Shown: positions 1-18,717 of the stretch, piece after piece
Position numbering within the stretch: position 1 is the first letter of the stretch
How the letters are laid out: each line of letters starts with the position of its first letter
DNA from: Candidatus Heimdallarchaeota archaeon
GTDB taxonomy: Archaea; Asgardarchaeota; Heimdallarchaeia; Heimdallarchaeales; Kariarchaeaceae
Assembly: GCA_030149205.1 (NCBI GenBank)
Contig: JASBSB010000007.1
Location: 1-32,000 of the forward strand
DNA length: 32,000 nt
Direction: 5' to 3'
Notes under the pieces: model-generated
What the model was told of the DNA's origin: nothing
The model's database searches: none
What the model saw: the letters and a program-made list of their open reading frames with translations, nothing else
Program-made: the position numbers and the translations under genes

Positions 1-8
1 GGGGGGAT

Positions 9-1981
9 GTTTCAATCCCTAAAAGGGTTCTAGCACGATTGCAACATTGCCAAGATAGATCTTTTTGCCATCTGAGATAAGGTGTTTCAATCCCTAAAAG
101 GGTTCTAGCACGATTGCAACAAAATATGACTTATATGTACAAATATTAAATAAGTTCATGTTTCAATCCCTAAAAGGGTTCTAGCACGATTGCAACTGGG
201 CGGAGACCTCAAGCAGATAATTTCACAAGTCCAGTTTCAATCCCTAAAAGGGTTCTAGCACGATTGCAACTCTCTCATAGCTTCTTGACTCAGGACCCTG
301 AAGATCGTTTCAATCCCTAAAAGGGTTCTAGCACGATTGCAACAATTTATAATAAATTTGGCGTTGTTGTGTGATTAGTGTTTCAATCCCTAAAAGGGTT
401 CTAGCACGATTGCAACATAAGCTGACAATAAAGACAGTCGGAGACTGGCAGTAGTTTCAATCCCTAAAAGGGTTCTAGCACGATTGCAACTTCAGGGCAG
501 GGATGATGCCTTGAAGTTTGGGAAATCGTTTCAATCCCTAAAAGGGTTCTAGCACGATTGCAACATAAATTAAAAAAAAAACAAAAATATGGCATTACAA
601 GAGTTTCAATCCCTAAAAGGGTTCTAGCACGATTGCAACATGGCAAAGCACCCGTTGCCTGTGGATTGAAACAACAGTTTCAATCCCTAAAAGGGTTCTA
701 GCACGATTGCAACTGTCGGCCCTCTGTTTCTTTCAGGATCTTGTGCATATGTTTCAATCCCTAAAAGGGTTCTAGCACGATTGCAACCAAAAGCACGAAA
801 GAAACAGAACGGGAAACCAGAGGTAGTTTCAATCCCTAAAAGGGTTCTAGCACGATTGCAACCGTTGAAGTTTCCGAACTTATCAAAGGTGAACCATGTG
901 TTTCAATCCCTAAAAGGGTTCTAGCACGATTGCAACAGCATCCTTCCACCCCTGAACAAAATGAGCAGGGTGTTGTGTTTCAATCCCTAAAAGGGTTCTA
1001 GCACGATTGCAACGCTCCAAGTACAAGCAGGATCTTAAAAAGACCTGGAAGTTTCAATCCCTAAAAGGGTTCTAGCACGATTGCAACAGATGTCATTCTG
1101 GTTTCCTCCCTTTCTCTATCCACTGTTTCAATCCCTAAAAGGGTTCTAGCACGATTGCAACCACCCTGAAAACCGCTGTGTTTCAAGAATTTGACAAACG
1201 TTTCAATCCCTAAAAGGGTTCTAGCACGATTGCAACAACACAGTAAGCGGACTTATACGACAAAATGTACCAACGTTTCAATCCCTAAAAGGGTTCTAGC
1301 ACGATTGCAACCCTAAAAGGGCAGGAGAAATCAAAATGGAAAATCGAAGTTTCAATCCCTAAAAGGGTTCTAGCACGATTGCAACTTTGTGGGGAAACAG
1401 TGGGTGAGGGCAATTGGTTCTAGTTTCAATCCCTAAAAGGGTTCTAGCACGATTGCAACCACAACATCTGCCCAAAGTGTGAAGATGAGGTTTTAACGTT
1501 TCAATCCCTAAAAGGGTTCTAGCACGATTGCAACTTTAGTATTTGATTTCATTCTTTGAATTTCGTCTGTTGGTTTCAATCCCTAAAAGGGTTCTAGCAC
1601 GATTGCAACCAACCACCTGAATTTCCTTCCCCTCTGGGAAGTAATCGTTTCAATCCCTAAAAGGGTTCTAGCACGATTGCAACTATTTAACTTCATCACC
1701 CCCCGCCGAAGGTGTGGCAGGTTTCAATCCCTAAAAGGGTTCTAGCACGATTGCAACGTTCCCTCATCCACTGCTCATGCTTTTCCTGCTCATACGTTTC
1801 AATCCCTAAAAGGGTTCTAGCACGATTGCAACGTTGGTGTGGAAGGATGGAATGCAGTGAGTGCGGCTGGTTTCAATCCCTAAAAGGGTTCTAGCACGAT
1901 TGCAACATGACAGTGCTGAGGTTGGTTTTCCAGTGTTGTACAATGTTTCAATCCCTAAAAGGGTTCTAGCACGATTGCAAC
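9..1981 (-). CRISPR. CRISPR array 1: 27 repeats and 26 complete spacers (36-40 nt) in the window; probably continues beyond the left edge
   Basis: An invariant 37-nt repeat, GTTTCAATCCCTAAAAGGGTTCTAGCACGATTGCAAC on +, runs from 9-45 to 1945-1981. Its minus strand ends in the canonical ATTGAAAC and contains a CCCT-TTT-AGGG stem-loop. The leader lies on the right, so transcription is on minus. Confidence 0.99.
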
Positions 1982-2107
1982 CGAGGCTATTTTTCCATAG
2001 GGAAGCCTTGTATTTATGTATTTCGATTTTCAAAATCGTGGAATCAGCGCGGTGGAATTTTCGATTTTTTTGCATTCTCAGACCCAGAGATAATAAAAGT
2101 AATTGCA
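1982..2107 (-). promoter_or_regulatory. CRISPR leader of array 1
   Basis: Abuts the last repeat. About 112/126 nt are identical to the reverse complement of 9099-9224. Contains a TATA-like ATAAATA (minus strand) and the palindrome CGATTTT-C-AAAATCG at 2024-2038. Confidence 0.92.
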
Positions 2108-2175
2108 TGGTATTTTGGGGGAAATTGTGCAAACACAAAGCTTGAAATATGCTCAAACCAGGTGGATGGTTTGGC

Positions 2176-2709
2176 TCAAGCAATCTTACAGACCCTCCGG
2201 TACTCACATGGGTAACATCGTCTCTTGTTTTCACAGGGTTTTGGGAGACTTCCATCGTCCATAAGCTGCTCAATCAGATCTCGTGTCTGTAAGACCTCTT
2301 GTTTGTTTTCCTCAGTTATAATAAGTTCAACGTGAAATCCCCCTTCTCTTCTTACCTCAACTGTTGTAACTGGTTTGTTAAAATGAGCCTCAGAGAGTAT
2401 TACATGAGATGCCAGTTGGACAAGATAACCCTTAGGTGTCGGAATGGGAATGCTGTGCTTGTATTCCACAACTCTTAGGTGGTCGGTATATTCAACAACT
2501 AGATCAACCACTGCTTTAAGTCGCAGGGATTGTATTTCAATGTAAAATTCTCTGTATGTTGCCAGTGAGTTTTTGTAGATGTATTGTTTGTCGCTCTTCC
2601 TCTTGTGAAACTCGGTTCCTTTGTCCATGAGATATGTTGGAGGTCTGGGGATCTTTGCAACATCTCTCCAGTAAATTTTCCGAGGGCAGTATAGGTACTG
2701 CCTAAGCAT
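2176..2709 (-). CDS. cas4: Cas4 nuclease (Fe-S, RecB-like); the start may be an in-frame ATA at 2721
   Basis: N-terminal MLRQYLYCPR Cys, VVDLVV..VVEYK nuclease motifs, QLASH, and C-terminal CENKRRCYPCEYRRVC Cys cluster. Lies directly downstream of cas2. Confidence 0.95.
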   Translation of the reverse strand: MLRQYLYCPRKIYWRDVAKIPRPPTYLMDKGTEFHKRKSDKQYIYKNSLATYREFYIEIQSLRLKAVVDLVVEYTDHLRVVEYKHSIPIPTPKGYLVQLASHVILSEAHFNKPVTTVEVRREGGFHVELIITEENKQEVLQTRDLIEQLMDDGSLPKPCENKRRCYPCEYRRVCKIA

Positions 2710-2720
2710 CTCTGCTGATA

Positions 2721-3527
2721 TCAGATGAGGACCACCTTTTTGTCTTCAAGGTCGAGAACAACCTTATGGGTCTTGGCTGAACGATTGTAACGTTTTGTCT
2801 TCGGTTGAAAGAGTACAGTTGAACTTGGAGAGAACTCCCTGTCAATAAGCAGTTCAGGTAAGACCTCAGGAGTCACAGTAATCGCAGTTTCAACACATTC
2901 GGCCAGTTTCTTTAGTACTTTTAATTTAGCGGTGCTGGGCAGGGTCTGCCCTTCAGATTGACTTTTTTTGTTTCCATGAGCTGTTTCTTCCATTTGTCCG
3001 GTGTTATCAGTGAGATTTGAGTCCCTCTTTTCTGAATGCTTATTGGTAACATCATCGTTTGCATTGTCTGGGATGAGCCCTGACTGAGGTTCTAATCCTT
3101 GTTCTTCGATTAACCTGTCCCCTGATCCTTTCTTAGATTGTGAATCATCCCCAGCTTCATTTTCTGAATTCTCTAATCCTACATCTGTTGAATGTTTATC
3201 TGAAATCGCTGTATGACCCTCCTGTGTTGCTTGGTCTTCATCACTGGTTTGGTTGGCATCTATGGTCTGACCTTCAATGAGTTCTGAGATTTGAAACTCT
3301 CGTTCTTTCGAAGCGCAGGTTTTACACTGGCGATAGAGGTTCATTAGATTCTCCCCTCCTTTCACAGTCTCAGAGAATTTCAGGCGTATTTCCTTAAGAT
3401 CCGCAGCCTTCAGATTTCCCTTGAAGACACTTTTTTGAACCCGTTGCATACCTTTAGCGATGAGAAAATCAGCGATCTGTGTTCTTGCAGAATTATCAGG
3501 TATGTCATAGGCGATGACCCAGAGCAC
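2721..3527 (-). CDS. cas2: Cas2 with a large acidic low-complexity insertion (268 aa, GTG start)
   Basis: VIAYDIPD...RVQKSVFKG are canonical Cas2 motifs and CKTC lies near aa 68-71. About 115 aa of S/E/D/Q/N/G-rich sequence follow, then a Cas2-like terminal strand (EDKKVVLI). Confidence 0.92.
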   Translation of the reverse strand: MLWVIAYDIPDNSARTQIADFLIAKGMQRVQKSVFKGNLKAADLKEIRLKFSETVKGGENLMNLYRQCKTCASKEREFQISELIEGQTIDANQTSDEDQATQEGHTAISDKHSTDVGLENSENEAGDDSQSKKGSGDRLIEEQGLEPQSGLIPDNANDDVTNKHSEKRDSNLTDNTGQMEETAHGNKKSQSEGQTLPSTAKLKVLKKLAECVETAITVTPEVLPELLIDREFSPSSTVLFQPKTKRYNRSAKTHKVVLDLEDKKVVLI

Positions 3528-3529
3528 TT

Positions 3530-6370
3530 TCAGTTAAACCTCCCTGTGTTGTAAATGTTAGGTGGAATTCTTAGGATTGACACGGATTTAAGTCTCTTCT
3601 TTGATTTGCAGACCTTTGAAAACCGGCTGGCTCCAGCGAAGATGGTTCTTCTAAGCTTGGTATCATCTTCATTTATGCTTTTGAAGAAAAAGGTGAGGAA
3701 TGATTTTTTCTCTCTTTTAGTGTGACTAAACATCTTGTTACTATACATTATGTTATTTGTGACTGGTATTTTTAGGGTTGCCTCAGCATAAATTTTGGAG
3801 GATGCTCGTGTAAAGCAGGCAATGAGTGGCGGAAGGTCTCTGAGAGAATATGTGTCATCTGAGAACTGTTCAACTGAGAACTGTTCGGATGAGAACTCTT
3901 CAGATGAGATCTGCTCAGATGTCCTCTTTGTGACCTCCAGGTTCTTAAGGAATTTTTGAATCTGTGATTTTTTGGATGGAATTGTCCTTTTGTTTGCTTT
4001 TGAGCTCTGAGTCTTCCTCGCCTGTTTTTCATTGTTTAACAGTTTTTTGATTTTATTTAAGAGGTAATAAAATCCGAGGTCTCTAAATGGGATCTCAAGC
4101 TCTTGCTGAATGTCCTTTGCAAGAGTGTTGATATACCCATTTCCATTGATCAGCAGTCCAGACAGCATGATCTCACTATCTGTGATAGACTGGAGAATTG
4201 AGTCACAAAGATTGATTAGTTCGAGATTCTTGAAACTCGAGTACACAGAGTAATAAAATTGGAGATTTTCATCATTGAGAATAGGTTCAGATGAGTGCGA
4301 GTTCTTATGCGGCTTAGGAAATGAATCAATGGTTAGGAGGAGCGTATGAAGGTTTTGTTGGTACCATTTAGTAAAAGCCCTGATATCTACCTCCTGACAT
4401 GTTAAACTAAGAAGTTCTAGCCCCAGTAGAGTCGACTTAAAGAAATCGGTTAGTTTTAAAAATCTATGTAGAACCAATGCTAAATCAGATGAAGAGCTTT
4501 CATCATTTTGGATATTGATTAATTCAGCATATACAGCAAGTTTGGTATCAAATTGAGAAATATTGGTAAGAAGAAGTGAAATGAAGTCTTCACCTATCTT
4601 TTCTATCTCAGGGCGGTCAGAAAACAGTTTACCAATGTTCTTCCAAATTCCTCTAAACATTCTCTTGATTTTCTTCTCATGAATCAGCGGTTTATACAAG
4701 ACCTGGTTAATCCTGGCCTGAGGTGAGCCATGTCCAAGTATCGGAACTATTGATCCAAATCTTCTTCCTTTCCTGATGAGATGTATCGGTAGTCCCTCAT
4801 AGGCGAGCAGTTTGACAGCAGAGGATGACAGGTCAGAAAGCGAGTCGATGAAAAAGACATCATCAAGGTATTTTAGTGAGACATGGTGTATATCTATTGG
4901 AGGAGGTACTGGTTCAGAAAAGTGTTCTTGAGCGAGTTCAGTGTAGTTAGAATTTTCTCCAATAATAAACTTTGCAGCCTCTGAAAGCATGATAGAAAAG
5001 GGTGGGAATTCCTTTTGGAGTGAGATAAGTTCTGTCTGCCCCCCAGGGAAACTAGAGCTTTCATTTGTTGATACCGATGAGATATAACTTCTTAATTGGA
5101 GTTCCTTATCTGAAGAAAATTCTCTGTATTGATTATCAGATTCTTTAATTTGTGAGTCAATGTGTGTTGTGGGAAATTTTCGCTTATCTTGGTCAGGGAG
5201 ATCCTGATTCTTCTCAATTTGGTGGATATCATTAGTCTCTGATGATGCATCAGACACGTTATTTGAAGTTTTATCTGAAATTGATTGATTTATATTTTTA
5301 TTATCTTCCTCAACACAGAGTTCTGGTGAATCCCTTAGTTCCTCAGGAGCATACCCCTTATTGTTGCTCTTTTCCAAATTCAGTTCTTCTTTTTCCTCTG
5401 ATTCCCTGGGGTTTTCTTGTCCATCTCTTTCACGGAGCATTCTTTCAATTGATAATTCTGCCAGCTTAAAGAATCTCTGGTATTGAGACATGTTCTTAAG
5501 TTCCTCATCGCTATAGAAGCGTTGGTTCTCATTTTCAGACAACTTAGTGTCATCACTATGGAACTCTCCCCTGTGTTTCCTGTTTTTTTCTTTATCAATT
5601 AGACTTGCAGCTTCATTTTTCTCATCACCTTTTTTATGAATTATGAAGAGATCTAAGCTTATCCAAGAAAAGTTTTCATTGGCGAATAGTTTAATTCTAT
5701 TCATAATTTTCTCGTGGGATTCATTTCTTGCAAAAAGCTTCAGAATTTCAGTATACTTAATTATGTGCACTTTTTTAGAAGAATCATGATTTATCTGTTT
5801 TGAATCCACATCTTTTTGATTGATTACATCTGTATTCTTCTCTAAATTTGTCTTCTTGTTGATAATGGCTTTTAATATCTCCCTGCGAACATGTATGAGC
5901 TCTTCTGATGAGTTAACAAATGAGTTAGCTGATGATTTGACTGTATCAACTGGTGAGTTAGCCGACGGGTTAACTACTGTATCAGATGATACCATACCGG
6001 AACTTCTTTGTGATATAAGTGGATCATCACTGTTCTGATTCCTTCCATTGTTGTTCTCAACTGTGTTTTCCTTGGTTTCTTCTTCAGAATTTGAATTAAG
6101 ATCCGTTGAAGCGTCTATAATGTTATTTTCAATTATGCTATTTTCAATTAAATTATCTTGTATATTCTTTTCTTCAAGAAAACTGTCTTCAATAAAATTA
6201 TCTTTAATATTCTTATCTTCTCCACTATGATTTACTGATACTGTTTTTTGGACTGTGGAGATTGAACTGAATCTCTCGCGAAGATGCTTTCTGCGTATTT
6301 TTGGCTTGATGTATAGAACCCCTCTACTGGTTCCCATCTGAGAGTCTTGAAGGATGACAAGTGACGTCAT
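3530..6370 (-). CDS. cas1: Giant (946 aa) Cas1-derived protein, predicted catalytically inactive, with a ~470-aa low-complexity insertion
   Basis: aa 1-24 and ~495-560 (VSLKYLDDVFFIDSLSDLSSSAVKLLAYEGLPIHLIRKGRRFGSIVP...QARINQ) resemble the Cas1 N-terminal domain. aa 718-764 align almost without gaps to the helical core of the Cas1 at 7840-8955. It occupies the cas1 position in a cas1-cas2-cas4 operon. Confidence 0.8.
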   Translation of the reverse strand: MTSLVILQDSQMGTSRGVLYIKPKIRRKHLRERFSSISTVQKTVSVNHSGEDKNIKDNFIEDSFLEEKNIQDNLIENSIIENNIIDASTDLNSNSEEETKENTVENNNGRNQNSDDPLISQRSSGMVSSDTVVNPSANSPVDTVKSSANSFVNSSEELIHVRREILKAIINKKTNLEKNTDVINQKDVDSKQINHDSSKKVHIIKYTEILKLFARNESHEKIMNRIKLFANENFSWISLDLFIIHKKGDEKNEAASLIDKEKNRKHRGEFHSDDTKLSENENQRFYSDEELKNMSQYQRFFKLAELSIERMLRERDGQENPRESEEKEELNLEKSNNKGYAPEELRDSPELCVEEDNKNINQSISDKTSNNVSDASSETNDIHQIEKNQDLPDQDKRKFPTTHIDSQIKESDNQYREFSSDKELQLRSYISSVSTNESSSFPGGQTELISLQKEFPPFSIMLSEAAKFIIGENSNYTELAQEHFSEPVPPPIDIHHVSLKYLDDVFFIDSLSDLSSSAVKLLAYEGLPIHLIRKGRRFGSIVPILGHGSPQARINQVLYKPLIHEKKIKRMFRGIWKNIGKLFSDRPEIEKIGEDFISLLLTNISQFDTKLAVYAELINIQNDESSSSDLALVLHRFLKLTDFFKSTLLGLELLSLTCQEVDIRAFTKWYQQNLHTLLLTIDSFPKPHKNSHSSEPILNDENLQFYYSVYSSFKNLELINLCDSILQSITDSEIMLSGLLINGNGYINTLAKDIQQELEIPFRDLGFYYLLNKIKKLLNNEKQARKTQSSKANKRTIPSKKSQIQKFLKNLEVTKRTSEQISSEEFSSEQFSVEQFSDDTYSLRDLPPLIACFTRASSKIYAEATLKIPVTNNIMYSNKMFSHTKREKKSFLTFFFKSINEDDTKLRRTIFAGASRFSKVCKSKKRLKSVSILRIPPNIYNTGRFN
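3860..3919. repeat. Four degenerate 15-nt tandem units (TGAGAACTGTTCxxx) encoding SEQIS/SEEFS/SEQFS/VEQFS
   Basis: Units start at 3860, 3875, 3890 and 3905, read directly from the sequence. Confidence 0.85.
6117..6221. repeat. Seven degenerate 15-nt tandem units encoding pentapeptides (IKDNF IEDSF LEEKN IQDNL IENSI IENNI)
   Basis: 15-nt periodicity, e.g. ATAATGTTATTTTCA / ATTATGCTATTTTCA / ATTAAATTATCTTGT. Confidence 0.75.
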
Positions 6371-7374
6371 TTTAGATTCACCTCATTTGAATGATCAGAT
6401 TTAGTTTGAATCATGGATGGGTGCAAAGGTTTTGAGGACAGTTCTTTAATCTTATGTGGAAACCTTTTCTGGGGTTCCTCATCTTTAGTATCCTCGATTT
6501 TTATCTCTGAGCTCCAGTACCTGAATGATTTTAGGGATACTGCAGCAAATTCATTCTGTTGAATGTGTAGTACCATCCAGTCTCCCTGAAGCCAAACTAT
6601 TGTGCCTTTTAATGTCAGGTTCTGAGAGGCTGTGACTGTCAAAACCTTTGCATCCTTTAGGTCTAAATCTGGGATAAGGTTTTGATGTGAAATCTCCAGG
6701 TTATACCGATGAGCGATCGATAAAAATATTTCACCTATCCTCTCAAACTTCTCTGCCACCTCAGAATTTGAAGTACTCTGAGCAAAGGACTCTCCCTTTT
6801 CATCTGTTGTTAGCCTATCTGGAACATTTAACTCATTAGAGAGATGATGCTCCAAAGCCAATGCAAATGGTAGCCCATCAATCTTTTGAAGTACCAATGC
6901 CTCATTCAACCCCTGTTCTACCAATCTTACGGTTTCTCCCCTGCTTCGTCGGCTTATACCCACCTTGAATCGGGAGTTAAATCTCCCAACATACAGGAGA
7001 TAAGATTGATGACAGGTCTCTCTGTTCTCATAATATCCACAGGGATAAAAATCATGAGTACACCATCCCACTTTTACAAGTTGGGAGTCAGGCTCTAAAT
7101 AATTGCATTTCTTGATCTCTAGGTATCTCTCATCATCATCCAGCTCAATGGATTGGCAATTTGAACAGACGTCCTCCTCTGATGGACCTAAACAGATCTC
7201 ACAGACATGCATTTTGGCCTTTAAGGAGATCCTGCTTCCAATTACAAGAATAACATGAAATGTGCTCTTTGTTTCCTCTAGATAACAGGTTAAAGTTGAA
7301 CGAAATGGAAAGAACGGAGAAAAATAATTCTCTTTCTCTTTTTCTACTGTGTATGAAGTGTCAAAAATTATCAA
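6367..7374 (-). CDS. DUF2797-family Cys-rich protein, putative GIY-YIG/T5orf172-like nuclease
   Basis: CEIC..CSNC and further Cys residues, then YLLYVGRFNSRFKVGISRR..VRLVEQG..A..L...E and C-terminal GTIVWLQGDWMVL, matching my recollection of the DUF2797 pattern. Its stop overlaps the next start (ATGA at 6367-6370). Confidence 0.75.
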   Translation of the reverse strand: MIIFDTSYTVEKEKENYFSPFFPFRSTLTCYLEETKSTFHVILVIGSRISLKAKMHVCEICLGPSEEDVCSNCQSIELDDDERYLEIKKCNYLEPDSQLVKVGWCTHDFYPCGYYENRETCHQSYLLYVGRFNSRFKVGISRRSRGETVRLVEQGLNEALVLQKIDGLPFALALEHHLSNELNVPDRLTTDEKGESFAQSTSNSEVAEKFERIGEIFLSIAHRYNLEISHQNLIPDLDLKDAKVLTVTASQNLTLKGTIVWLQGDWMVLHIQQNEFAAVSLKSFRYWSSEIKIEDTKDEEPQKRFPHKIKELSSKPLHPSMIQTKSDHSNEVNLK

Positions 7375-7747
7375 AGTTCCCGTCCCCCTTTTTTTAACAA
7401 TCTACTCAAGGAACCTTATATATGTTTCTCTCTGCGAAATCTACTTTGCTTTAAAAAACATGAAATACTTTCGGTTTCAGATATTTGCTGTTCAGATACT
7501 CTGCCAGCAGCTCATTTCTAGTATTATAGATAAAAAGATTACCTCAGATCTCCCCATGGTGTAACCTTCATATCATTTGTGAAGTAAATCAATCCCACTC
7601 TGTAAAATTTTACTGATCCACTGAAGAGGAAAGGGATGATATGGTCAAGGGTTGATTCGAATTAGCATAGATATAGGATAAGTGTTTAGAAAATTGAAAA
7701 TATGATAAGCTTAAGTAGCTCGAACACCTTTATCTTAAACATAAGTC

Positions 7748-7787
7748 CTTTCTTCATCAACTTTCTACTTTCTTCATCAACTTTCTA
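7748..7787. repeat. Perfect 2 x 20-nt tandem direct repeat (CTTTCTTCATCAACTTTCTA), putative operator upstream of the second cas1
   Basis: Identical units at 7748-7767 and 7768-7787, followed by TATA-like TTTATTAA at 7804-7811 and ATG at 7840. Confidence 0.85.
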
Positions 7788-7839
7788 TTTTGTTGCGCTA
7801 TCCTTTATTAAGCACCAAACTACCCTTATATACAAGGGG

Positions 7840-8955
7840 ATGGGTTCCATACAAAACCAAACAAAAAATAATCCTGGGGGAGAAGATGTAAAATCAGCTG
7901 AATCGTCATTAACACACGAAATTAACACAGGTAAGTCTGAGAGGATCAACAAATACAAAAACGAAAAATTCCTTTTTGAGGAGGGAAAGATCCTTTCTAT
8001 AACCAGAAGAGGAAAACTTCTTAAGATCTTTGAGACCTTTCCAATTCAATCCTCGAGATTCATCTCAGCTGATCACACCCTCATTCTTCCGCTTAAGTCT
8101 GGATTCAGCAAAGAATCTTTGAACCTTGCACTAGAAAATGGGACAAATATCACGCTTTCAGATAGAAATGCAGGAGTTAAATTGTACAGCAACCAAATTC
8201 AAGAAGAGCTTGATCTTATCAAAACTCAGCAATACAAAGCAATGAGCTCAGAGAACTTCTGTCACTCATTAAGCACCAAGATTCTTCGCCGAAGTCAGGA
8301 GGGAAAGCTTCAGACCATCAGACTCATGATGTATCTCTCTGAGGATCTAGGAGCAGAGGAAGAGCTTAAGAGTCTTGAAAACTCTTTGATAACTCAAAAT
8401 AATCTTATTGAGAACCCTGATCAGAGATGGAGGACATTCCTCTTTAGTGAAGAAGCAAACTTTGCAGCAGTCTACTTCAACATCTTTAACAAATATTGTG
8501 AGCTACATGGCTGGGAATTTACCAAACGATCCCGAAGACCAGCCCAAAACCCAGTCAATGCACTCTTAAACTATGGATACGCGATTCTAAAGGGAAAGGT
8601 AGATCGACTGGTCACTGGCTCGGGTCTGGACCCATTTGTTGGTATGCTACATACCCTTAGACCAGGGAGAGAGTCACTCTCTCTTGATCTGATGGAACCC
8701 TTTAGACAACTCATGGTTGATACAAGTGTCATTGAGATTATTCACTCAAAACTCCTTTCAGAGAAGGACTTTGAACTAAGAAAAGATGAGGTCAGACTTT
8801 CTGATGATGCCAAAGAGACATTGCAGATGCTGATTAAGCTTCGAACCAATTACAATGAAGAGGAATCTCTGATCCTCCCAATGATTGAAACTATCCGAGA
8901 ACTACTGATGGCAGTCATTAGCTATACTGACAGGGGGAATGCAACGGATGAATAA
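7840..8955 (+). CDS. cas1: Cas1 integrase with intact catalytic triad (ORF track starts at 7702; ATG 7840 preferred)
   Basis: EEANFAAVYF, RSRRPAQNPVNALLNYGYAIL, SGLDPFVGMLH and SLSLDLMEPFR motifs show E/H/E present. The upstream in-frame extension is hydrophobic and crosses a 20-nt (non-triplet) repeat. Confidence 0.95.
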   Translation: MGSIQNQTKNNPGGEDVKSAESSLTHEINTGKSERINKYKNEKFLFEEGKILSITRRGKLLKIFETFPIQSSRFISADHTLILPLKSGFSKESLNLALENGTNITLSDRNAGVKLYSNQIQEELDLIKTQQYKAMSSENFCHSLSTKILRRSQEGKLQTIRLMMYLSEDLGAEEELKSLENSLITQNNLIENPDQRWRTFLFSEEANFAAVYFNIFNKYCELHGWEFTKRSRRPAQNPVNALLNYGYAILKGKVDRLVTGSGLDPFVGMLHTLRPGRESLSLDLMEPFRQLMVDTSVIEIIHSKLLSEKDFELRKDEVRLSDDAKETLQMLIKLRTNYNEEESLILPMIETIRELLMAVISYTDRGNATDE

Positions 8956-9098
8956 TTTCAGAATTTCCAATTGTAGAGAGATACCATACTCAAATGTATC
9001 CTCACCGCATTTACTATGTGAAGATCAGAATTTTAGAATTTATTTCTGGTCAGAAGAATTCTCTGTTGAACAAATGTGTGAGAATCAGTCAGATAGTG

Positions 9099-9224
9099 TG
9101 CAATTCCTTTTGTGCTCTCTGGGTCTGAGGACACCAAAAAATCGGAAATTCCACCGTGCTGGTTCCGCGATTTTGAAAATCGAAATGCATAAATACAAGG
9201 CTTCCCTATGGAGAAATAGCCTCG
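9099..9224 (+). promoter_or_regulatory. CRISPR leader of array 2
   Basis: Inverted homologue of 1982-2107. Palindrome CGATTTT-G-AAAATCG at 9168-9182 and TATA-like ATAAATA at 9189-9195, about 30 nt before the first repeat. Confidence 0.92.
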
Positions 9225-12200
9225 GTTGCAATTGAGTTAAAACCCTTGTAGGGATTGAAACAGTAAATGCACAATTGAATGTATCACCATAAAGTTTAAG
9301 TTGCAATTGAGTTAAAACCCTTGTAGGGATTGAAACGTATCGTCATCAATCCCAACATACTCACGTATAATGGTGTTGCAATTGAGTTAAAACCCTTGTA
9401 GGGATTGAAACGAATATAAACATAATCTATTTTCATCTGAAATGAGCTGTTGCAATTGAGTTAAAACCCTTGTAGGGATTGAAACAAACACACCACAGCA
9501 CCTACAGAAATGGGTTTGACGTGGTTGCAATTGAGTTAAAACCCTTGTAGGGATTGAAACATGTTGGCTTATCAACGCTGAAGCTCATCCTACGAAAAGT
9601 TGCAATTGAGTTAAAACCCTTGTAGGGATTGAAACTTGCAAACTGGCTTCAAAATAATTACAAGTACAGCCATGTTGCAATTGAGTTAAAACCCTTGTAG
9701 GGATTGAAACAAATATTTTTCATACTTTGAAAGAAAAGAATCAATTTGTTGCAATTGAGTTAAAACCCTTGTAGGGATTGAAACATCCATATCATATATG
9801 AAGGGAATGACTGCCAGAAACAGTTGCAATTGAGTTAAAACCCTTGTAGGGATTGAAACGTTTGATTAATAACGGAAACCCTAAATGATTTCTCCTCGTT
9901 GCAATTGAGTTAAAACCCTTGTAGGGATTGAAACCAAATTGAAGGTCATGATAAGGACAGAGATCTCTTACGTTGCAATTGAGTTAAAACCCTTGTAGGG
10001 ATTGAAACCGTTTGCGTCGCTCGTTATGGTTATCCCGTTGGTGAGTTGCAATTGAGTTAAAACCCTTGTAGGGATTGAAACAGTACACTGCATTAAGAAA
10101 GTTTATCCCCGATTTTTAGTTGCAATTGAGTTAAAACCCTTGTAGGGATTGAAACGTTCCATGAAAAAACTATATCTTCTGATGCTGTTCCCTTGTTGCA
10201 ATTGAGTTAAAACCCTTGTAGGGATTGAAACATTTGGACTTTTGTTTTTTTAGAATTTTGAAACACAGTTGCAATTGAGTTAAAACCCTTGTAGGGATTG
10301 AAACGTGCTGGGGACTTCATACTGCAGCAATGTTGCCACAGTTGCAATTGAGTTAAAACCCTTGTAGGGATTGAAACGGAGGTTGTACACTCATTTATTG
10401 TGGTTTTCTCAAGTGTTGCAATTGAGTTAAAACCCTTGTAGGGATTGAAACAGGTTTCCACCTATTGAAAGACCAATCTTTGACTTGCGTTGCAATTGAG
10501 TTAAAACCCTTGTAGGGATTGAAACTCCAAGGCAGAGTCGTTCAGACACGTTTACACCGACTCGTTGCAATTGAGTTAAAACCCTTGTAGGGATTGAAAC
10601 GTGAGTTTCAGCGAATTAATGTATTAATCTTAAAATTGTTGCAATTGAGTTAAAACCCTTGTAGGGATTGAAACATCTTAGGTTTTTTGTCAGTAGTAAT
10701 ATTCTTACCCATGTTGCAATTGAGTTAAAACCCTTGTAGGGATTGAAACTAAGCGTCAACTCTCATCTTATATTCTTCTTCATCTTTGGTTGCAATTGAG
10801 TTAAAACCCTTGTAGGGATTGAAACGCAACAACCCTTTGTTGTTGCCCGCACATAACCCCTACGTTGCAATTGAGTTAAAACCCTTGTAGGGATTGAAAC
10901 ATAAGTTCCCTCTTTATTTGTATCTTATCCTCATTCTGTTGCAATTGAGTTAAAACCCTTGTAGGGATTGAAACAATCTCACCCTCCCTTCTCATTCTTT
11001 TTTTTTTTTTTTGTTGCAATTGAGTTAAAACCCTTGTAGGGATTGAAACTCTTGGAGTGTGTCAAACTTAGAAGCCATATACAGAAGTTGCAATTGAGTT
11101 AAAACCCTTGTAGGGATTGAAACTGAGAAACATGAAATGGACTGTTAGAAATCTTTCTGTGTTGCAATTGAGTTAAAACCCTTGTAGGGATTGAAACTAG
11201 GTGGTGTTGCTATATACTCTTATCAAAATTTCTCTGTTGCAATTGAGTTAAAACCCTTGTAGGGATTGAAACAGCTCTGAGAGATACTTTTGAAATTGAT
11301 GCGTTTTGTGGTTGCAATTGAGTTAAAACCCTTGTAGGGATTGAAACCATTACAAGATACTGTAACTGATAATGATAATGTGACGTTGCAATTGAGTTAA
11401 AACCCTTGTAGGGATTGAAACTTAAGACGGGCGAGTTTGTATTTTTTGTAATGCTCCACGTTGCAATTGAGTTAAAACCCTTGTAGGGATTGAAACTTGT
11501 GCGTTATATAATTAGTACGTATCTTCTCACTTGGGTTGCAATTGAGTTAAAACCCTTGTAGGGATTGAAACACAATTGCATGTTTGAGGAGCTGTATCAC
11601 CATAAAAGTTGCAATTGAGTTAAAACCCTTGTAGGGATTGAAACTATACTTAAAATTATGCTTAAACAGATAGCATATAAGAGGTTGCAATTGAGTTAAA
11701 ACCCTTGTAGGGATTGAAACTTTTCTGCTTCATCCTCGTCTGGTGTGGGAATTGGTTCGTTGCAATTGAGTTAAAACCCTTGTAGGGATTGAAACCAAGA
11801 TGATTTCGAGAAAATGATGAATGAAATCATAGAGTTGCAATTGAGTTAAAACCCTTGTAGGGATTGAAACTATTCTTTGAGTAGGACCCTGCAGGGAGAA
11901 GCTTTATTGTTGCAATTGAGTTAAAACCCTTGTAGGGATTGAAACAAACGGATATTCTGAAACACAATCCCTTATACTCCATCGTTGCAATTGAGTTAAA
12001 ACCCTTGTAGGGATTGAAACAGATATATTCCCTCTTGATATATTCTAATCCTGTTATTGTGTTGCAATTGAGTTAAAACCCTTGTAGGGATTGAAACATA
12101 TATATGGGCTTTGATAAAAGAGAGATGGAACGAACGTTGCAATTGAGTTAAAACCCTTGTAGGGATTGAAACCATATCTTCCGTAGTGTGTTTCCCCGTC

Positions 12201-12399
12201 ACTGTAGACGGTTGCAATTGAGTTAAAACCCTTGTAGGGATTGAAACGAAGAGGTACGGTCAGACAAGTCCCATCTGTCGTTCAGCGTTGCAATTGAGCT
12301 AAAACCCTTGTAGGGATTGAAACGAAGAGGTACGGTCAGACAAGTCCCATCTGTCGTTCAGCGTTGCAATTGAGCTAAAACCCTTTTAGGAATTGAAAC
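9225..12399 (+). CRISPR. CRISPR array 2: 43 repeats and 42 spacers (36-40 nt)
   Basis: Repeat GTTGCAATTGAGTTAAAACCCTTGTAGGGATTGAAAC. The last two repeats (12287-12323, 12363-12399) are variants and the last spacer is duplicated, which marks the trailer end. Confidence 0.99.
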
Positions 12400-12525: not shown

Positions 12526-13407
12526 TTATTTTGTTTTTAGTAATTCTGCATCCTCATCATAGCTTAAAATAGATTTTACTAGTTTTTCATATCTATCTAG
12601 TTCTGCATCAGTGATTTTAGCTCTGGTTGTTTGATTAAGCATGGCGAAAGGTGGAGTTGATTTCCATTCAGTACGGTCAATGAGCTTGAAGGACACAGAT
12701 CCAAAATTGTCTTTGATTCCGTCGACTTCACGGTCTGCGTATTTATGTGAGCCTAGAAGTCTTGTGTGTCCATCGAGGATTCCCAATGATTTAAGTATCA
12801 TTGCCTCTTCCTTTTGGGTGGGGTTTGAGATTGACACACTAAATCTTAGTACTCCATTGATGTTGATTAATTCTTTTTGATCATTTCCAAATCCTTTCAC
12901 ATTTTTCACAGAAATTTGTGTTTCGTCAAGAAGAACTGCATCAGAAACCATGACTCTTCCTTTGACTGCATTTGGTTTATCTTTGTTCTGATAATTTTGG
13001 CGACCTGTCTCAATGTATCCAAAGAGCTTGCAGACATCACATGTAACATCCTTGTTAAATCTCATTTCTTTCGTTTTGAAGATAGTCATGTGTTTTTTAG
13101 AAGGTTTAGATGGTTTTTGATTCTCTCTAAGCGGTGAACAGTGCTGAGATGAGCCAATCTCAAGTCTAGATCGAATTAATCCCTTCAGGGTTGACCCTGG
13201 GATGACATATCTGTCTTTGTTATATATCATTGATTTCACTGCTTCTGGTCTTTCAGCTGCGCTTCTTTGATCAACATTAGCTGCGGTTATATTATCAATA
13301 TGCTTTGATTTGGTGTGGATTCTTTCTCCTCCACTTCCGACAAATGTAAATTTGTTGGTTATGACTTCAAAGGTAAATTTCACAAAATTGTTCATGGTGT
13401 TGTGCAT
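12526..13407 (-). CDS. Type III RAMP, Cas7 group (Csm5-like terminal subunit)
   Basis: FTFVGSG, YVIPGSTLKGLIRSRLE, CDVCKLFG and GRVMVSD motifs, with a degenerate G-rich loop (LLGSHK...NFGSVSF). Last gene of the operon. Confidence 0.85.
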   Translation of the reverse strand: MHNTMNNFVKFTFEVITNKFTFVGSGGERIHTKSKHIDNITAANVDQRSAAERPEAVKSMIYNKDRYVIPGSTLKGLIRSRLEIGSSQHCSPLRENQKPSKPSKKHMTIFKTKEMRFNKDVTCDVCKLFGYIETGRQNYQNKDKPNAVKGRVMVSDAVLLDETQISVKNVKGFGNDQKELININGVLRFSVSISNPTQKEEAMILKSLGILDGHTRLLGSHKYADREVDGIKDNFGSVSFKLIDRTEWKSTPPFAMLNQTTRAKITDAELDRYEKLVKSILSYDEDAELLKTK

Positions 13408-13413
13408 TTTAGC

Positions 13414-14193
13414 TCACTCCATTTGTTTGATTAATTTATTCAGATAGTCTTCTGTTTTTTCTGCACCTATCTTTGTTGTTTTAATCTCTGCACCATCAGT
13501 TGTCATGGTATCGGTAAATTTTGTGTTAACGGTTGAGAGAACCTCAACTTTGACACTACCGAATCCTTTTGTTGAGTGTGCACCAATTGTTATTATTCCA
13601 TTGTTAAGGAGTTTTAAGGTGTATGCAAGATATCCTAGACTCAGCTTTTCATTTACAACAGTTATGAATCCTTCAAATTCAGTTCCTTTGGGGACAAATT
13701 CGACCTGTGTAAGCATGTTATTCATGACAGCCCCGTATTTTCTTGAGATAGCAATTGATGTTTTGGTTTGAAGTACTACAGGTTTTTGAGATACAAAATC
13801 GCTAATTCTTGTTGCAGCTCTGAATACTGTTGATCCAAACATCCAGCAAGTTAGACATATTCCCTGATCTTTTTCGGTTTTTCTGAGCACGAGTTTCTTT
13901 TTTAAAGTTGGGTAGTCTGCTTTTGTAAAATCTCTGTCATTTTTGTTTATTTTACGTCCACAGCTGTTCCTATCAAGGGGATCACATGCGTAGTATGAGT
14001 TCGAGCTTCTCAAAACTCTTTCAATATTTGCGCGAATTATTCCTTTCATTGTTGTCCCTGGTATGAATGGATAATCCCCCTCAATATTTTGGATTTTCAT
14101 AACCTGGCTTGCTTTGGTATCAGCAAGGTCTTTTTTTCCACTTCCTACATGTAGCATTGAATCAGCTGTTATTTTGAGTTTGAGGGTGACCAT
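13414..14193 (-). CDS. csm3: Type III RAMP, Cas7/Csm3 family
   Basis: MLHVGSG, PFIPGTTMKGIIR, CLTCWMFGS and IGAHSTKGFGSV G-rich loop. Confidence 0.9.
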   Translation of the reverse strand: MVTLKLKITADSMLHVGSGKKDLADTKASQVMKIQNIEGDYPFIPGTTMKGIIRANIERVLRSSNSYYACDPLDRNSCGRKINKNDRDFTKADYPTLKKKLVLRKTEKDQGICLTCWMFGSTVFRAATRISDFVSQKPVVLQTKTSIAISRKYGAVMNNMLTQVEFVPKGTEFEGFITVVNEKLSLGYLAYTLKLLNNGIITIGAHSTKGFGSVKVEVLSTVNTKFTDTMTTDGAEIKTTKIGAEKTEDYLNKLIKQME

Positions 14194-14212
14194 TTCATTG
14201 TTGTCAAAGTGA

Positions 14213-14965
14213 TTAGCTAGAATTTTTCTTCACCTCAAATTCATTAATGTCATCGTTGAAGGTTACTGTGTATTTTTCTTCTTTTGGTTCAAATTCACCT
14301 TCAACTTTTGTGTAATATGTTGCAGTCAGTTCAGAGAGTTTTAGCACCCCCAATCCCCCGCTTGTTTTACCACCGACAGATATTTGGTTAAGTGCCATTT
14401 TTTTAAGCAGATAAAGGATAATTTTGCTTCTGATGTCATTCTTGTCAGCTGAAAGTTTCTCTTCAAAATTAAATTTGATGTTTTCAACGAACATATCAAA
14501 GAAGTACTCATTTTCTGGTTCTATTACCTCTATTTCATATTTTGCCCCCGGATAAGCCACACCAAGCACACGATGAATTGCGACACCTGGTTTCTGAGAT
14601 GTTGGTACATCATCCTCTGTTGGGATTAGATCAAGTACTTTTACGTGCGATGCCAAGCTGTTACCACCGAATATCCCGCAAACGGGGCAGTAATTGTCTT
14701 CCTTGCACATATTTGATGTATTTGGGGGTTCGCATGAGTTACCGTTACCCACTAATTTTTCTGCTTCCGTTCTAAGAACCCCCTTGAGTGATGTTCCTGG
14801 AATAACAGGTAAATCTATTCCCCCAATATTTTGTTTGAAAACACTGTTTTCACCTATCCCCATTTCCAGAGAGGAACCTCCCACGTGTGTTTGTGTTAAG
14901 TTTTTTATGATTCCCTGTAGTTTGAGAAGAGATTTGAAAGAGTTAAAGTCTTGATAGTCGTTCAT
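14213..14965 (-). CDS. csm3: Type III RAMP, Cas7/Csm3 (Csx7-like) family (ORF track starts at 15031; ATG 14965 preferred)
   Basis: THVGG, PVIPGTSLKGVLRTEAE, CPVCGIFGG and VGGKTSGGLG loop. The ATG is 1 nt after the csm2 stop. Confidence 0.9.
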   Translation of the reverse strand: MNDYQDFNSFKSLLKLQGIIKNLTQTHVGGSSLEMGIGENSVFKQNIGGIDLPVIPGTSLKGVLRTEAEKLVGNGNSCEPPNTSNMCKEDNYCPVCGIFGGNSLASHVKVLDLIPTEDDVPTSQKPGVAIHRVLGVAYPGAKYEIEVIEPENEYFFDMFVENIKFNFEEKLSADKNDIRSKIILYLLKKMALNQISVGGKTSGGLGVLKLSELTATYYTKVEGEFEPKEEKYTVTFNDDINEFEVKKNSS

Positions 14966-14966
14966 T

Positions 14967-15371
14967 TTATCTACTGTACCCTTGTCTCTTTGATTGTGTT
15001 CTGTTTCCAGATTGGCTGACAAATTCTGCATTTAGAGATTTTAGATCTTTTATTTTATCTGTGCTTAATCTGTTTTTCTCTATAATTTCATTTGCCCAGT
15101 TGATATATGTTAACAGTCTGAGTGCGATCTGTGGTTGATCCTTTAATTTTTCCAGTTCCTTGACTAACTCTTTACTGAATGAATGGGTTAGTTTTCCTCC
15201 TGCTGCCTGTCTTGCTGTGAACAGCATTAGTTTCTGCACACCTTCTTTTGTTGGCTCAGATTGTAAAAGATTATATAGATTAGAGATTTGGGATGATCCC
15301 GAACCTTTGTCTGTAATCTTAAACCCTGCCAATTTTGTTCCTAGATCTATGTAGTTTACGTTTTTACTCAT
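14967..15371 (-). CDS. csm2: Type III small subunit (Cas11/Csm2-like)
   Basis: 134 aa, all-helical, with SQISNLYNLL...LMLFTARQ pattern, located between the Cas5-like and Cas7 genes. Confidence 0.75.
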   Translation of the reverse strand: MSKNVNYIDLGTKLAGFKITDKGSGSSQISNLYNLLQSEPTKEGVQKLMLFTARQAAGGKLTHSFSKELVKELEKLKDQPQIALRLLTYINWANEIIEKNRLSTDKIKDLKSLNAEFVSQSGNRTQSKRQGYSR

Positions 15372-16423
15372 TTTTCTACCTCCGGGTTCATTGCCCCGTA
15401 TCCATCATAATCCTTTGTACCGGATCCGATGAGTTGTTGTGTTGGATGTAATTCAATAGTTTTGTCGAGGAGGAGGAGAGAACCTTCTTCGGCGACATAC
15501 GTCAACTCAGTTTGTGTTCCACCACCAGGGTTATTGGATTCCCATCCATTTTCTTTGGAGACTGATCCATTTGATTCTAATATAGAATCAACTTGTATGT
15601 CTCCTATCTTTGTTAATTTTGATTGATTAGTTTCGATAATAGTCTTTGATATTAAGCTCACCTGATTTGATGATACTGTGTTTAGTTTCTTCAGTTCGTC
15701 CACAGAGTTTATTTTCAGGGTTCCAAATCCTTTACTTCGTCCACCTCCGATTTGGATATACTTATCCTTCATAGAATTTATAAATTCCAGAGTTTGTGTA
15801 TTTTCTGTTTCTAGATAGAATGTGAATTGATACCCTGGGATTATAGCCTCGTCAAAATATAGTATCCCTTTTTCGGTGGAGTTAGTAGTTGCCTGAATTC
15901 CTATTCCTGTAAAGTTTGTTGTATAAATTGCAGCCTCAGTAAAGAAGTCACATTCTTTACATTTTAGTCCTTCCCTGTATTTTAATGTAGCAGATTCTTT
16001 GCAAGTAGGGCATGAAGGTACAACTTCAGGATTATCCATTGGAATAATAAAGCCATACTTCTGGTATAATTGATTATTAATGTCTGAAGCTTCTTCTTTT
16101 CTCATGCAACTCTTACATAGCAAATAATTTCGAGGGATTTGGATAAGAATGTCCTGACATTTAGGACAGGTCCTATAGAGGAAGGATACCTTTGCTAATG
16201 GTTTTGCTGAATACAACAAATTATTTGGAACGATACAGGTATTATATTCAGGACATTTATCTTCTATACACCAATCACTGCTATGCTTGCATTCATATCC
16301 AAGAAAGGCGTTAATTAATGCTCCTCTGATTGTAGATCCAGAGATGGTCTTAGAGATTGACCTATCTACCCCAGATTTTATTTTGATGGGCTCAATTTGT
16401 TCTACTGTAACCTTTAGTATCAT
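15368..16423 (-). CDS. RAMP of the Cas5 group (Csx10/Csm4-like) with a Cys-rich insertion
   Basis: ISGSTIRGALI, IGGGRSKGFG G-rich loop and C-terminal GSG...GYG. Contains multiple CxxC pairs. Confidence 0.8.
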   Translation of the reverse strand: MILKVTVEQIEPIKIKSGVDRSISKTISGSTIRGALINAFLGYECKHSSDWCIEDKCPEYNTCIVPNNLLYSAKPLAKVSFLYRTCPKCQDILIQIPRNYLLCKSCMRKEEASDINNQLYQKYGFIIPMDNPEVVPSCPTCKESATLKYREGLKCKECDFFTEAAIYTTNFTGIGIQATTNSTEKGILYFDEAIIPGYQFTFYLETENTQTLEFINSMKDKYIQIGGGRSKGFGTLKINSVDELKKLNTVSSNQVSLISKTIIETNQSKLTKIGDIQVDSILESNGSVSKENGWESNNPGGGTQTELTYVAEEGSLLLLDKTIELHPTQQLIGSGTKDYDGYGAMNPEVEK

Positions 16424-18584: not shown

Positions 18585-18717
18585 AGAAAATAACCCTCCT
18601 TATCCATATTATTTTGGGTTTATTCTTAATTTAAAAAGATTTTGCGAACTTATTAGATTTTTTCAATAAAACATTTACTCATTTTATGTTGTTTTTACGG
18701 ATATTTATTTTTGCAAA

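Follow-up and report, generated by a model that had tools for sequence, protein, structure and literature searches.

A rare two-Cas1 variant of the Asgard DUF2797-cas1-cas2-cas4 adaptation module with a putative heteromeric integrase

Organization of the locus

The analysed DNA (the window, 32,000 nucleotides) comes from a Heimdall-group Asgard archaeon and carries two CRISPR arrays, between which lie two divergently transcribed arms of cas genes. The features are as follows.

9–1981, minus strand: CRISPR array A, at least 27 identical 37-nt repeats, running off the contig start
1982–2175, minus strand: leader of array A, carrying one arm of a 164-nt inverted repeat
2176–2709, minus strand: cas4, 177 aa (TIGR00372, 95.5 bits; Pfam Cas_Cas4, 49.9 bits)
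2721–3527, minus strand: cas2, 268 aa (Pfam Cas2, 48 bits on aa 1–74)
3530–6370, minus strand: cas1*, 946 aa, a Cas1 paralogue predicted to be catalytically dead
6367–7374, minus strand: DUF2797 gene, 335 aa, TTG start (Pfam, 36.4 bits)
7375–7839: divergent intergenic region between the DUF2797 gene and cas1, read from the sequence
7840–8955, plus strand: cas1, the active partner (Pfam, 170 bits; TIGR00287, 140 bits)
8956–9224, plus strand: leader of array B, with the other arm of the inverted repeat
9225–12399, plus strand: CRISPR array B, 43 repeats of 37 nt
12526–19812, minus strand: type III effector genes and cas6, with Csx7-like and Csx10-like RAMPs and a short Cas10 (496 aa)

Cas1 and Cas2 are encoded together beside a leader and a CRISPR array, the arrangement that defines an adaptation module, and the type III genes are its interference partner in this genome. 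The end of the DUF2797 gene and the start of cas1* overlap by 4 nt, and the cas1 with an intact triad stands alone on the opposite strand behind the shared divergent intergenic region, just as the initial annotation placed it. The same annotation described the minus-strand genes as the only cas2/cas4 operon, which holds within the window but not genome-wide: another locus, of standard type, lies beside a 30-nt repeat on contig C4 of this genome and comprises cas1, cas2, larger ORFs upstream, and an ORF where cas4 would be expected. This second, ordinary adaptation module was counted against the heterodimer explanation discussed below. Two further ORFs, 8939–9235 (98 aa) and 1806–2273, were rejected as genes because they overlap leaders and repeats and match no family.

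Both arrays had been described as long with uniform repeats, and this is borne out: the 27 repeats of array A are all identical, and among those of array B only two distal ones are degenerate. Because these last two repeats mark the distal side, the leader end of array B was placed at 9225. The repeat of array A is a reverse-complement relative of that of array B, and the arms of the inverted repeat (1944–2107 and 9099–9262) are 88% complementary, the leaders of the two arrays being mirror images of each other. Arrays also adjoin the two-Cas1 module in several relatives (L009, L011, L014, and L018). The long uniform arrays by both arms and the mirror-image leaders suggest a module in use. With its own leader and array at the end of each arm, the locus could also be read as two separate half-modules, the plus-strand Cas1 serving array B and the type III system and the minus-strand operon serving array A. 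An active integrase would then, however, be lacking from the minus-strand arm, and both Cas2 and Cas4 from the plus-strand arm. The 88% identity of the leaders and the close relationship of the repeats suggest a single integrase, and the Cas1/Cas1* pair is kept even where only one adjoining array is seen. We consider this reading very improbable.

A catalytic and a degenerate Cas1 paralogue

Membership of the Cas1 family (PF01867/TIGR00287) was judged by a score over the curated cut-off, a two-domain fold, and the catalytic triad. The plus-strand Cas1 (7840–8955) scores above the cut-off and has the triad. Its ORF is open from 7702, with ATG 7840 inferred as the likely start by alignment with partner Cas1 proteins; numbered from 7702, its catalytic residues are Glu251, His317, Asp329, and Glu332, in columns invariant across 16 Cas1 sequences, and the four positions are kept in all six sequences of the partner clade. 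The N-domain is atypical (the Pfam match starts at profile position 43): the N-terminal β domain has diverged and lost its canonical motifs, and the canonical C-terminal tail is missing.

The 946-aa protein Cas1* reaches only 15.7 bits against Pfam Cas1 (cut-off, 22.3 bits), over the N-domain only. BLASTP of the two Cas1 proteins of the window against each other gave no significant match, and searches of PDB sequences with phmmer and with the family profile gave Cas1 only as a non-significant top match (2yzs; E, 0.16). Its homology nevertheless emerges from its five database relatives (phmmer E, 1.8e-12 to 5e-6), two of which exceed the Pfam Cas1 cut-off (P0006, 29.3 bits; P0008, 26.2 bits), and from the alignment of the Cas1* family profile with the Cas1 profile (hhalign probability, 96.7%; E, 4e-10). 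A word-filtered homologue search starting from the family alignment yielded a single additional close relative. An AlphaFold2 model of the relative P0007, built from a Cas1*-only alignment (pLDDT, 83; pTM, 0.82), has Cas1 or casposase entries as all of its top 50 PDB matches (best E, 2.6e-10; TM, about 0.6). The Cas1* of the window aligns along this whole model except for its inserts, so that it too is predicted to adopt the two-domain Cas1 fold. The 946-aa ORF is thus a real, very divergent Cas1 homologue. A casposase, the active Cas1-like integrase of a mobile element with its own polymerase and terminal repeats, was considered and rejected: Cas1* has no triad and is encoded inside a cas operon between two arrays, and none of the annotated neighbouring genes encodes a polymerase. 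The domain plan of Cas1* (minus strand throughout) is as follows.

aa 1–35, nt 6266–6370: N-terminal hairpin
aa 36–489, nt 4904–6265: low-complexity insert of 454 aa
aa 490–800, nt 3971–4903: Cas1 N-domain and shrunken helical domain
aa about 800–860: second insert
aa 861–946: conserved C-terminal helix and tail

The remaining Cas1* proteins have lengths of 304–464 aa, and the large insert occupies a loop that is variable in every member. It is not an assembly artefact, because a strain about 95% identical, from an independent vent metagenome, covers parts of it, and the only indel in the cas1* coding sequence of this second strain is 15 nt long and in frame. The initial annotation saw in the insert a disordered region that the structural subunit had been free to gain. 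We rejected this interpretation, because in this genome Cas2 has low-complexity sequence inserted as well, and so does the active Cas1 at its N-terminus; the insert is a species trait and lies outside the mechanism.

All eight members of the Cas1* family have a deletion of the His segment of the triad, and their Glu and Asp/Glu columns show no conservation; since no triad position is conserved, Cas1* is, as judged from its sequence, catalytically dead. It is nonetheless under purifying selection, with a dN/dS of 0.185 over 329 codons (DUF2797, similar at 0.23). The lost triad, the shrunken helical domain, the long branches, and the large low-complexity inserts might suggest a decaying, functionless remnant of the Cas1 that first occupied the operon, superseded once another Cas1 had been acquired. 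Such a remnant is very improbable in view of that dN/dS, of reading frames intact in 8 of 8 sequences that have diverged to about 25% identity, of 19 invariant columns among them, of the in-frame indel described above, and of the confidently predicted fold. The degeneration of the two paralogues is complementary: Cas1* keeps the N-domain motifs and the tail without the catalytic residues, and its partner the reverse.

Distribution of the module and the DUF2797 protein

The order Cas1 divergent from DUF2797-Cas1*-Cas2-Cas4 is found on all contigs that encode a Cas1* relative and are long enough to show it (L009, L010, L011, L014, L015, L018–L020, and L052). Its range comprises four species in the genus of the window, together with two or three metagenomic lineages. 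In a set of 400 Asgard genomes, Cas1* is confined to genus g1 (4 of 4 genomes); Cas1 proteins of the partner clade (>400 bits) are confined to these four genomes too, and the best match elsewhere scores 196 bits. The co-occurrence of the two cas1 types across genomes, proposed at the outset as a check, is therefore complete in this set: always together, and never elsewhere. In trees, the Cas1* clade and the partner clade are each monophyletic on long stems, so the co-occurrence may reflect one origin and vertical inheritance and amount to few independent observations; the placement of both clades, and with it an origin of the partner by duplication or by capture, was not settled by these trees.

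Single-Cas1 relatives of the operon, DUF2797-Cas1-Cas2(-Cas4), where a lone canonical Cas1 takes the place of Cas1*, were found in 14 genomes of the same class, and three 17-kb views around such operons contained no second cas1. The best matches of the Cas1* profile are these slot Cas1 proteins, which the partner profile ranks directly after its own clade. The two-Cas1 module is a rare, derived variant of the Asgard DUF2797-cas1-cas2-cas4 module, and to call it a new adaptation system, as had been suggested, is an overstatement. Within it, Cas2 consists of a core (aa 1–80), an acidic low-complexity linker, a conserved segment, a basic tract, and a terminal strand; in an alignment of 15 Cas2 proteins, the segment after the linker is conserved only in two-Cas1 modules.

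The DUF2797 protein, as seen from alignment and model, has eight invariant Cys residues, a GIY-YIG-like core (aa 124–232), and a C-terminal β barrel. Foldseek of the whole model against the PDB gave no significant match, and no Pfam GIY-YIG match was found in the protein; the three best structural matches of the core are nonetheless all GIY-YIG domains (rmsd, 2.8–3.3 over 82–87 residues), with superposition on HIGLE (Z, 6.3) and Slx1 (Z, 6.0 and 5.6) at middling Z scores. In the alignment, Tyr128, Lys137, Gly139, Arg150, and Glu175 are invariant and Glu153 nearly so, at GIY-YIG-like positions. As in Slx1, the core is combined with Cys-rich metal-binding motifs; unlike Slx1 and HIGLE, the protein has K-V-G instead of Y-I-G as its second motif, as well as extra N- and C-terminal β domains. 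A literature search tied DUF2797 to CRISPR adaptation in one passing mention only. The protein may be considered a candidate adaptation nuclease, predicted from its modelled core, that heads cas1-cas2-cas4 operons across Heimdall-group archaea.

Predicted Cas1–Cas1* heterodimer and comparison with known systems

To our knowledge, every solved Cas1–Cas2 integrase has one catalytic protomer per Cas1 dimer. The terms catalytic and non-catalytic Cas1 protomer have been used for the Synechocystis complex (PMC7969031). The initial annotation proposed that these two roles have here been split between two genes. The proposal is consistent with the co-occurrence, the single-Cas1 relatives, the complementary degeneration, and the purifying selection described above, and with a predicted heterodimer; the binding itself is a prediction, and to call the heterodimer obligate, as that annotation did, goes further than this. 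The modelled Cas1–Cas1* pair has an ipSAE of 0.84 against 0.09 for the best control, in a comparison of the heterodimer with its controls. Of 80 solved complexes 58 attained that mark, as did 2 among 110 mismatched pairs. The runs agree in no less than 92% of contacts, with a partner pLDDT of at least 81, and the interface is the canonical strand-and-helix interface of Cas1; the score may only reflect likeness to solved Cas1 homodimers. Conservation of the interface was set aside as support, since the interface of Cas1* differs from the rest of the protein (p, 0.047) but not within the N-domain, and that of the partner shows no difference. Taken together, we assign a probability of a little under 0.6 to the model-based reading that all Cas1 dimers in the integrase are Cas1–Cas1* heterodimers.

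A division of labour without a heterodimer has to be weighed against it. Partner homodimers with Cas2 would then form the whole integrase, and a Cas1* homodimer or scaffold would assemble Cas2, Cas4, and DUF2797 for capture or processing of prespacers, or would regulate integration. This arrangement fits the translational coupling of Cas1* to DUF2797 in one operon with Cas2 and Cas4, the separate transcription unit of the active Cas1, and the conservation of the predicted interface, which is not distinctive; the extra conserved Cas2 segment of two-Cas1 modules could be a docking peptide. It is hard to reconcile, however, with a partner that has lost the N-domain motifs and the tail found in every single-Cas1 relative, if that partner works alone, and with the confident prediction of the heterodimer through the canonical interface. 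We regard it as a serious, though unlikely, alternative.

According to the heterodimer reading, the ancestral Asgard form would have been DUF2797-cas1-cas2-cas4, in which one Cas1 homodimerized within a Cas1(4)-Cas2(2) integrase. The in-operon copy, Cas1*, would have lost the active site while keeping the canonical N-terminal dimerization domain and C-terminal tail, and a divergently transcribed second copy would have retained the complete active site as its N-domain diverged and its tail disappeared. The partner Cas1 would carry out the two transesterifications at the leader–repeat junctions of both mirror-image arrays, Cas1* would occupy the non-catalytic position and hold Cas2 and/or the prespacer (the subunit contacting Cas2 is a supposition), and Cas4 and the GIY-YIG-like DUF2797 protein would presumably trim prespacers. 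The odds are about even for this scheme in its full extent, namely an integrase heteromeric by necessity, (Cas1-Cas1*)2-Cas2(2), whose asymmetry was fixed in two genes by duplication and complementary loss, together with a previously unrecognized GIY-YIG-like adaptation nuclease, DUF2797, widespread in Asgard archaea. In solved integrases the protomer roles are not separable by mutation because both protomers come from one gene; if they lie on separate genes here, they would become separable in a natural system. The module could then reveal what the non-catalytic position contributes in terms of surfaces (dimer interface, Cas2 contact, C-terminal tail, and prespacer ruler), and would provide a clear case in which subfunctionalization within a defence system has given rise to a pseudoenzyme partner.

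Makarova et al. 2020 (CRISPR J 3:156) reportedly described diverged Cas1 homologues in Asgard archaea, and the inactive 'Cas1-solo' group 1 is said to stem from Krupovic et al. 2014. A literature search for two-Cas1 or inactive-Cas1 systems, outside whose coverage Makarova et al. 2020 fell, returned only Cas12/Cas13 matches. Two papers speak of an exceptional diversity of highly diverged Cas1 homologues in Asgard genomes (PMC8730458; PMC9755687). Cas1* resembles these proteins in being a highly diverged archaeal Cas1 homologue, of a kind sometimes inactivated. They are, as summarized in citing papers, tied to ARAMP-type derivatives or mobile elements, whereas Cas1* is paired with an active Cas1 in a cas1-cas2-cas4 module by arrays, a distinction drawn from those summaries only.

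The module shares with the canonical Cas1(4)-Cas2(2) integrase with Cas4 the same protein families beside a leader and 37-nt repeats. It differs in that the protomers of the canonical integrase come from one gene, whereas here there are two diverged paralogues, one without an active site; Cas2 is also two to three times longer here, and a DUF2797 gene heads the operon. The model of the Cas1* relative superposes on the Cas1 chains of canonical Cas4–Cas1–Cas2 complexes such as those of types I-C, I-D, and I-G (PDB entries 7cr6, 7mi4, and 8d3l). The single-Cas1 Asgard operon has the same gene order, homologous DUF2797, Cas2, and Cas4 proteins, and the same phylogenetic neighbourhood, but its only Cas1 is active, 334–353 aa long, and canonical in both N-domain and tail, and a second, divergent cas1 is absent.

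Organisation of the two-cas1 locus

The window is the first part of contig C8 in a genome of 3.3 Mb and 12 contigs, and carries the following features.

9–1981, minus: CRISPR array A, 27 identical 37-nt repeats
between array A and cas4: leader of array A
2176–2709, minus: cas4
2721–3527, minus: cas2 (268 aa)
3530–6370, minus: cas1*, a 946-aa ORF
6367–7374, minus: DUF2797 gene, overlapping the 946-aa ORF by 4 nt
between the DUF2797 gene and cas1: divergent intergenic region
7840–8955, plus: cas1, open from 7702, with the probable start (ATG at 7840) taken from an orthologue alignment
between cas1 and array B: second leader
9225–12399: CRISPR array B, 43 repeats
beyond array B: type III effector genes (Csx7-like and Csx10-like RAMPs, 496-aa Cas10) and cas6

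The 37-nt repeats of the two arrays are related yet distinct and, as had been observed initially, both arrays are long with uniform repeats, array B being degenerate only at its far end. A 164-nt inverted repeat (1944–2107 versus 9099–9262; 88% complementary) has as its arms the two leaders, each including the first repeat of its array; this gives the locus mirror symmetry, and one integrase probably serves both arrays. At the distal end of array B (12211–12399), the last two spacers duplicate each other almost exactly (99%), and the two terminal repeats have 1 and 3 mismatches, as is typical of an old leader-distal end.

Among the type III genes, family scans of the short Cas10 (17022–18512, 496 aa) picked up the second palm domain alone and no N-terminal domain, and the scanned neighbours included no recognisable CARF- or SAVED-type effector. 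A 362-aa leucine-rich-repeat protein (19900–20988) directly adjoins cas6.

The initial annotation regarded this as the only cas2/cas4 operon, a view that holds for the window but not for the genome, which has an ordinary second CRISPR-Cas locus on contig C4 (positions 1–11500) with Pfam-recognised cas1 and cas2, and an ORF in the cas4 position. Its 30-nt repeat, beginning GTTTCCAGACC, differs from those of the window, and its upstream ORFs (896, 644, 336, and 246 aa) would, by size alone, fit type I genes.

Relationship of Cas1* to Cas1

Taken by itself, the sequence of the 946-aa product (Cas1*) points only weakly to Cas1: it has no Pfam or NCBIfam match at default thresholds, its C-terminal half gives a sub-threshold match to the Cas1 N-domain (15.7 bits; E, 0.009), and no match to the neighbouring Cas1 came up in BLASTP. 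Exhaustive searching of 1.8 billion representative proteins with phmmer yielded only five relatives (304–464 aa; E, 1.8e-12 to 5e-6), two of which pass the Pfam Cas1 cut-off. Alignment of the Cas1* family profile with that of active Cas1 by hhalign gave a probability of 96.7% (E, 4e-10; 237 columns). Moreover, an AlphaFold2 model of one relative, P0007, built from an alignment of Cas1* sequences exclusively (pLDDT, 83; pTM, 0.82), had Cas1 or casposase chains as all of its best 50 PDB matches (top, 4n06_A; E, 2.6e-10). The profile alignment, the model, and its PDB matches together support homology of Cas1* to Cas1.

In both the MAFFT and hhalign alignments, the segment of six to seven residues containing the catalytic His is deleted in Cas1*. 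The region surrounding the first catalytic Glu is missing from four members, the Asp/Glu catalytic positions are variable, and the sole invariant acidic residue lies one position off the catalytic Glu. These alignments and the predicted fold indicate that Cas1* is a true paralogue of Cas1 that lacks an active site, in agreement with its first description as a dead Cas1. The plus-strand Cas1 retains Glu251, His317, Asp329, and Glu332 at positions that do not vary among 16 Cas1 proteins, which bears out the intact triad originally assigned to it. For the two most similar Cas1* sequences (86% identity over 329 codons), dN/dS is 0.185, compared with 0.23 for the adjacent DUF2797 and 0.04 for Cas2; Cas1* is thus not a pseudogene.

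The build of Cas1* in the family alignment is as follows.

aa 1–35: N-terminal beta hairpin
aa 36–489: 454-aa insert rich in Ser, Glu, Asn, and Lys
remainder, in order: canonical-looking Cas1 N-domain, shortened helical domain, second insert, conserved C-terminal helix and tail

A related strain, about 93–97% identical to the window, is present in an independent hydrothermal-vent metagenome (X2) from a different study, whose contigs span insert parts 4959–5465 and 5593–5938 as well as core parts of cas1*. The sole indel reported within the coding sequence is a 15-nt in-frame insertion (window 3874) in the second low-complexity stretch, and the long frame is thus maintained; a 4-nt insertion is found in the divergent intergenic region (window 7522). 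The spacers following the first repeat of array B in that strain differ from those of the window.

The initial annotation proposed that the structural subunit had been free to gain a disordered region. However, the giant insert is unique to the window species, at the site of a loop that is short in all other Cas1* members, and variable and poorly predicted in every member, and low-complexity stretches also occur in Cas2 and at the N-terminus of the active Cas1 in the same genome; the insert is therefore uninformative on such freedom.

Co-occurrence and origin of the two genes

Every Cas1*-encoding contig of sufficient length (loci L009/L010, L011, L014/L015, L018–L020, and L052) carries DUF2797-Cas1*-Cas2-Cas4 and, on the opposite strand, a cas1 of the partner type, i.e. 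that of the active Cas1; shorter contigs show those parts of the layout that fit. CRISPR arrays directly adjoin the partner cas1 in L009 and L018, and cas4 in L011 and L014. The neighbouring effectors of L018 are type I-like (Cas7, Cas5, and Cas3), not type III, so that the two-Cas1 module is untied to one effector type.

Among 400 Asgard species genomes, Cas1* was found only in the genus of the window, in all four of its genomes, and Cas1 of the partner clade (416–457 bits) in the same four and nowhere else, so the co-occurrence expected at the outset is upheld. The next best partner-profile match (196 bits) and the weaker Cas1*-profile matches are canonical Cas1 proteins of 334–353 aa occupying the position of Cas1* (slot Cas1). 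The class has 14 other genomes with such DUF2797-Cas1-Cas2-Cas4 operons, among them members of two genera in the family of the window, and three 17-kb locus views show no second cas1 beside the slot gene. These single-Cas1 loci serve as natural controls: a single cas1 is present when the slot gene is active, and a dead slot gene is always accompanied by an additional, active cas1. In one single-Cas1 locus (L045; contig C234 of genome G003, 4107–5008), the slot cas1 is split by an in-frame TGA into pieces of 107 and 179 aa, which reflects gene disruption or an error in sequencing.

In a joint alignment, slot Cas1 has a canonical N-domain (an I-S-x-x-A-I...G-I-P segment and an H-G-x-x-x-x-R-R-x-Q linker), a complete catalytic domain, and a C-terminal tail ending Tyr-x-Pro-Phe-like. 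Compared with it, Cas1* has kept the N-domain motifs and a tail but lacks the catalytic function and a portion of the helical domain, whereas the partner has a nearly unchanged catalytic domain, no tail, and a diverged N-domain, its Pfam match beginning at profile position 43. Such complementary losses would be expected if two paralogues had divided the functions of one ancestor. The Cas1* and partner clades are each monophyletic with full support, so that their co-occurrence amounts to few independent events, and their compatible internal branching ({L009, L011} versus the set from the window's genus) fits one origin followed by co-inheritance. Because the stems of both clades are long, the placement of the partner fits duplication of the slot gene and capture alike.

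Accessory proteins and predicted heterodimer

DUF2797 contains eight invariant Cys, a GIY-YIG-like core, and a C-terminal beta barrel; Tyr128, Lys137, Gly139, Arg150, and Glu175 are invariant, and Glu153 nearly so. Foldseek with the whole model (pLDDT, 77) found nothing significant, and residues 124–232 superposed best on three GIY-YIG nuclease domains (HIGLE, Z 6.3; Slx1, Z 6.0 and 5.6). Reading DUF2797 as a GIY-YIG-like nuclease is thus reasonable, though unproven. In 14 additional genomes of the class (L039–L050, L060, and L063), the gene is the first of a cas1-cas2(-cas4) operon, often overlapping cas1; the genome of the window has a second copy far from any cas gene (contig C4, 292191–292721). 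DUF2797 is a candidate for a so far undescribed adaptation nuclease; our literature search found no paper linking it to adaptation.

The Cas2 proteins of two-Cas1 modules (165–268 aa) contain a conserved segment of roughly 30 residues between an acidic linker and a basic tract (L-T-x-x-x-L-x-x-F-L-I-x-x-x-F; window 2721–3527, L009, L011, L013, L014, L018, and L052), which is absent from the Cas2 of single-Cas1 relatives and may make contact with the new arrangement of subunits.

No description of a paired active and inactive Cas1 module was found in the literature searched; Asgard archaea have very diverse Cas1 homologues according to Makarova et al. 2020, as cited in PMC8730458, and the 2020 paper may list the pair. 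One complex was predicted, that of the compact Cas1/Cas1* pair of L009, with a separate alignment for each chain. It gave an ipSAE of 0.84 (0.83–0.85 in three runs) versus 0.09 for the best control, at least 92% of contacts common to the runs, and a partner pLDDT of at least 81. In the calibration of the tool, 58 of 80 solved complexes and 2 of 110 mismatched pairs attained the ipSAE mark that this pair passed; because many Cas1 dimers have been solved, the pass denotes likeness to known Cas1 dimers, not proof. The predicted Cas1–Cas1* heterodimer may be obligate, as the initial annotation inferred. In the model, the two chains meet through the final strand of each N-domain and the helix after it, which is also how Cas1 homodimers pair.
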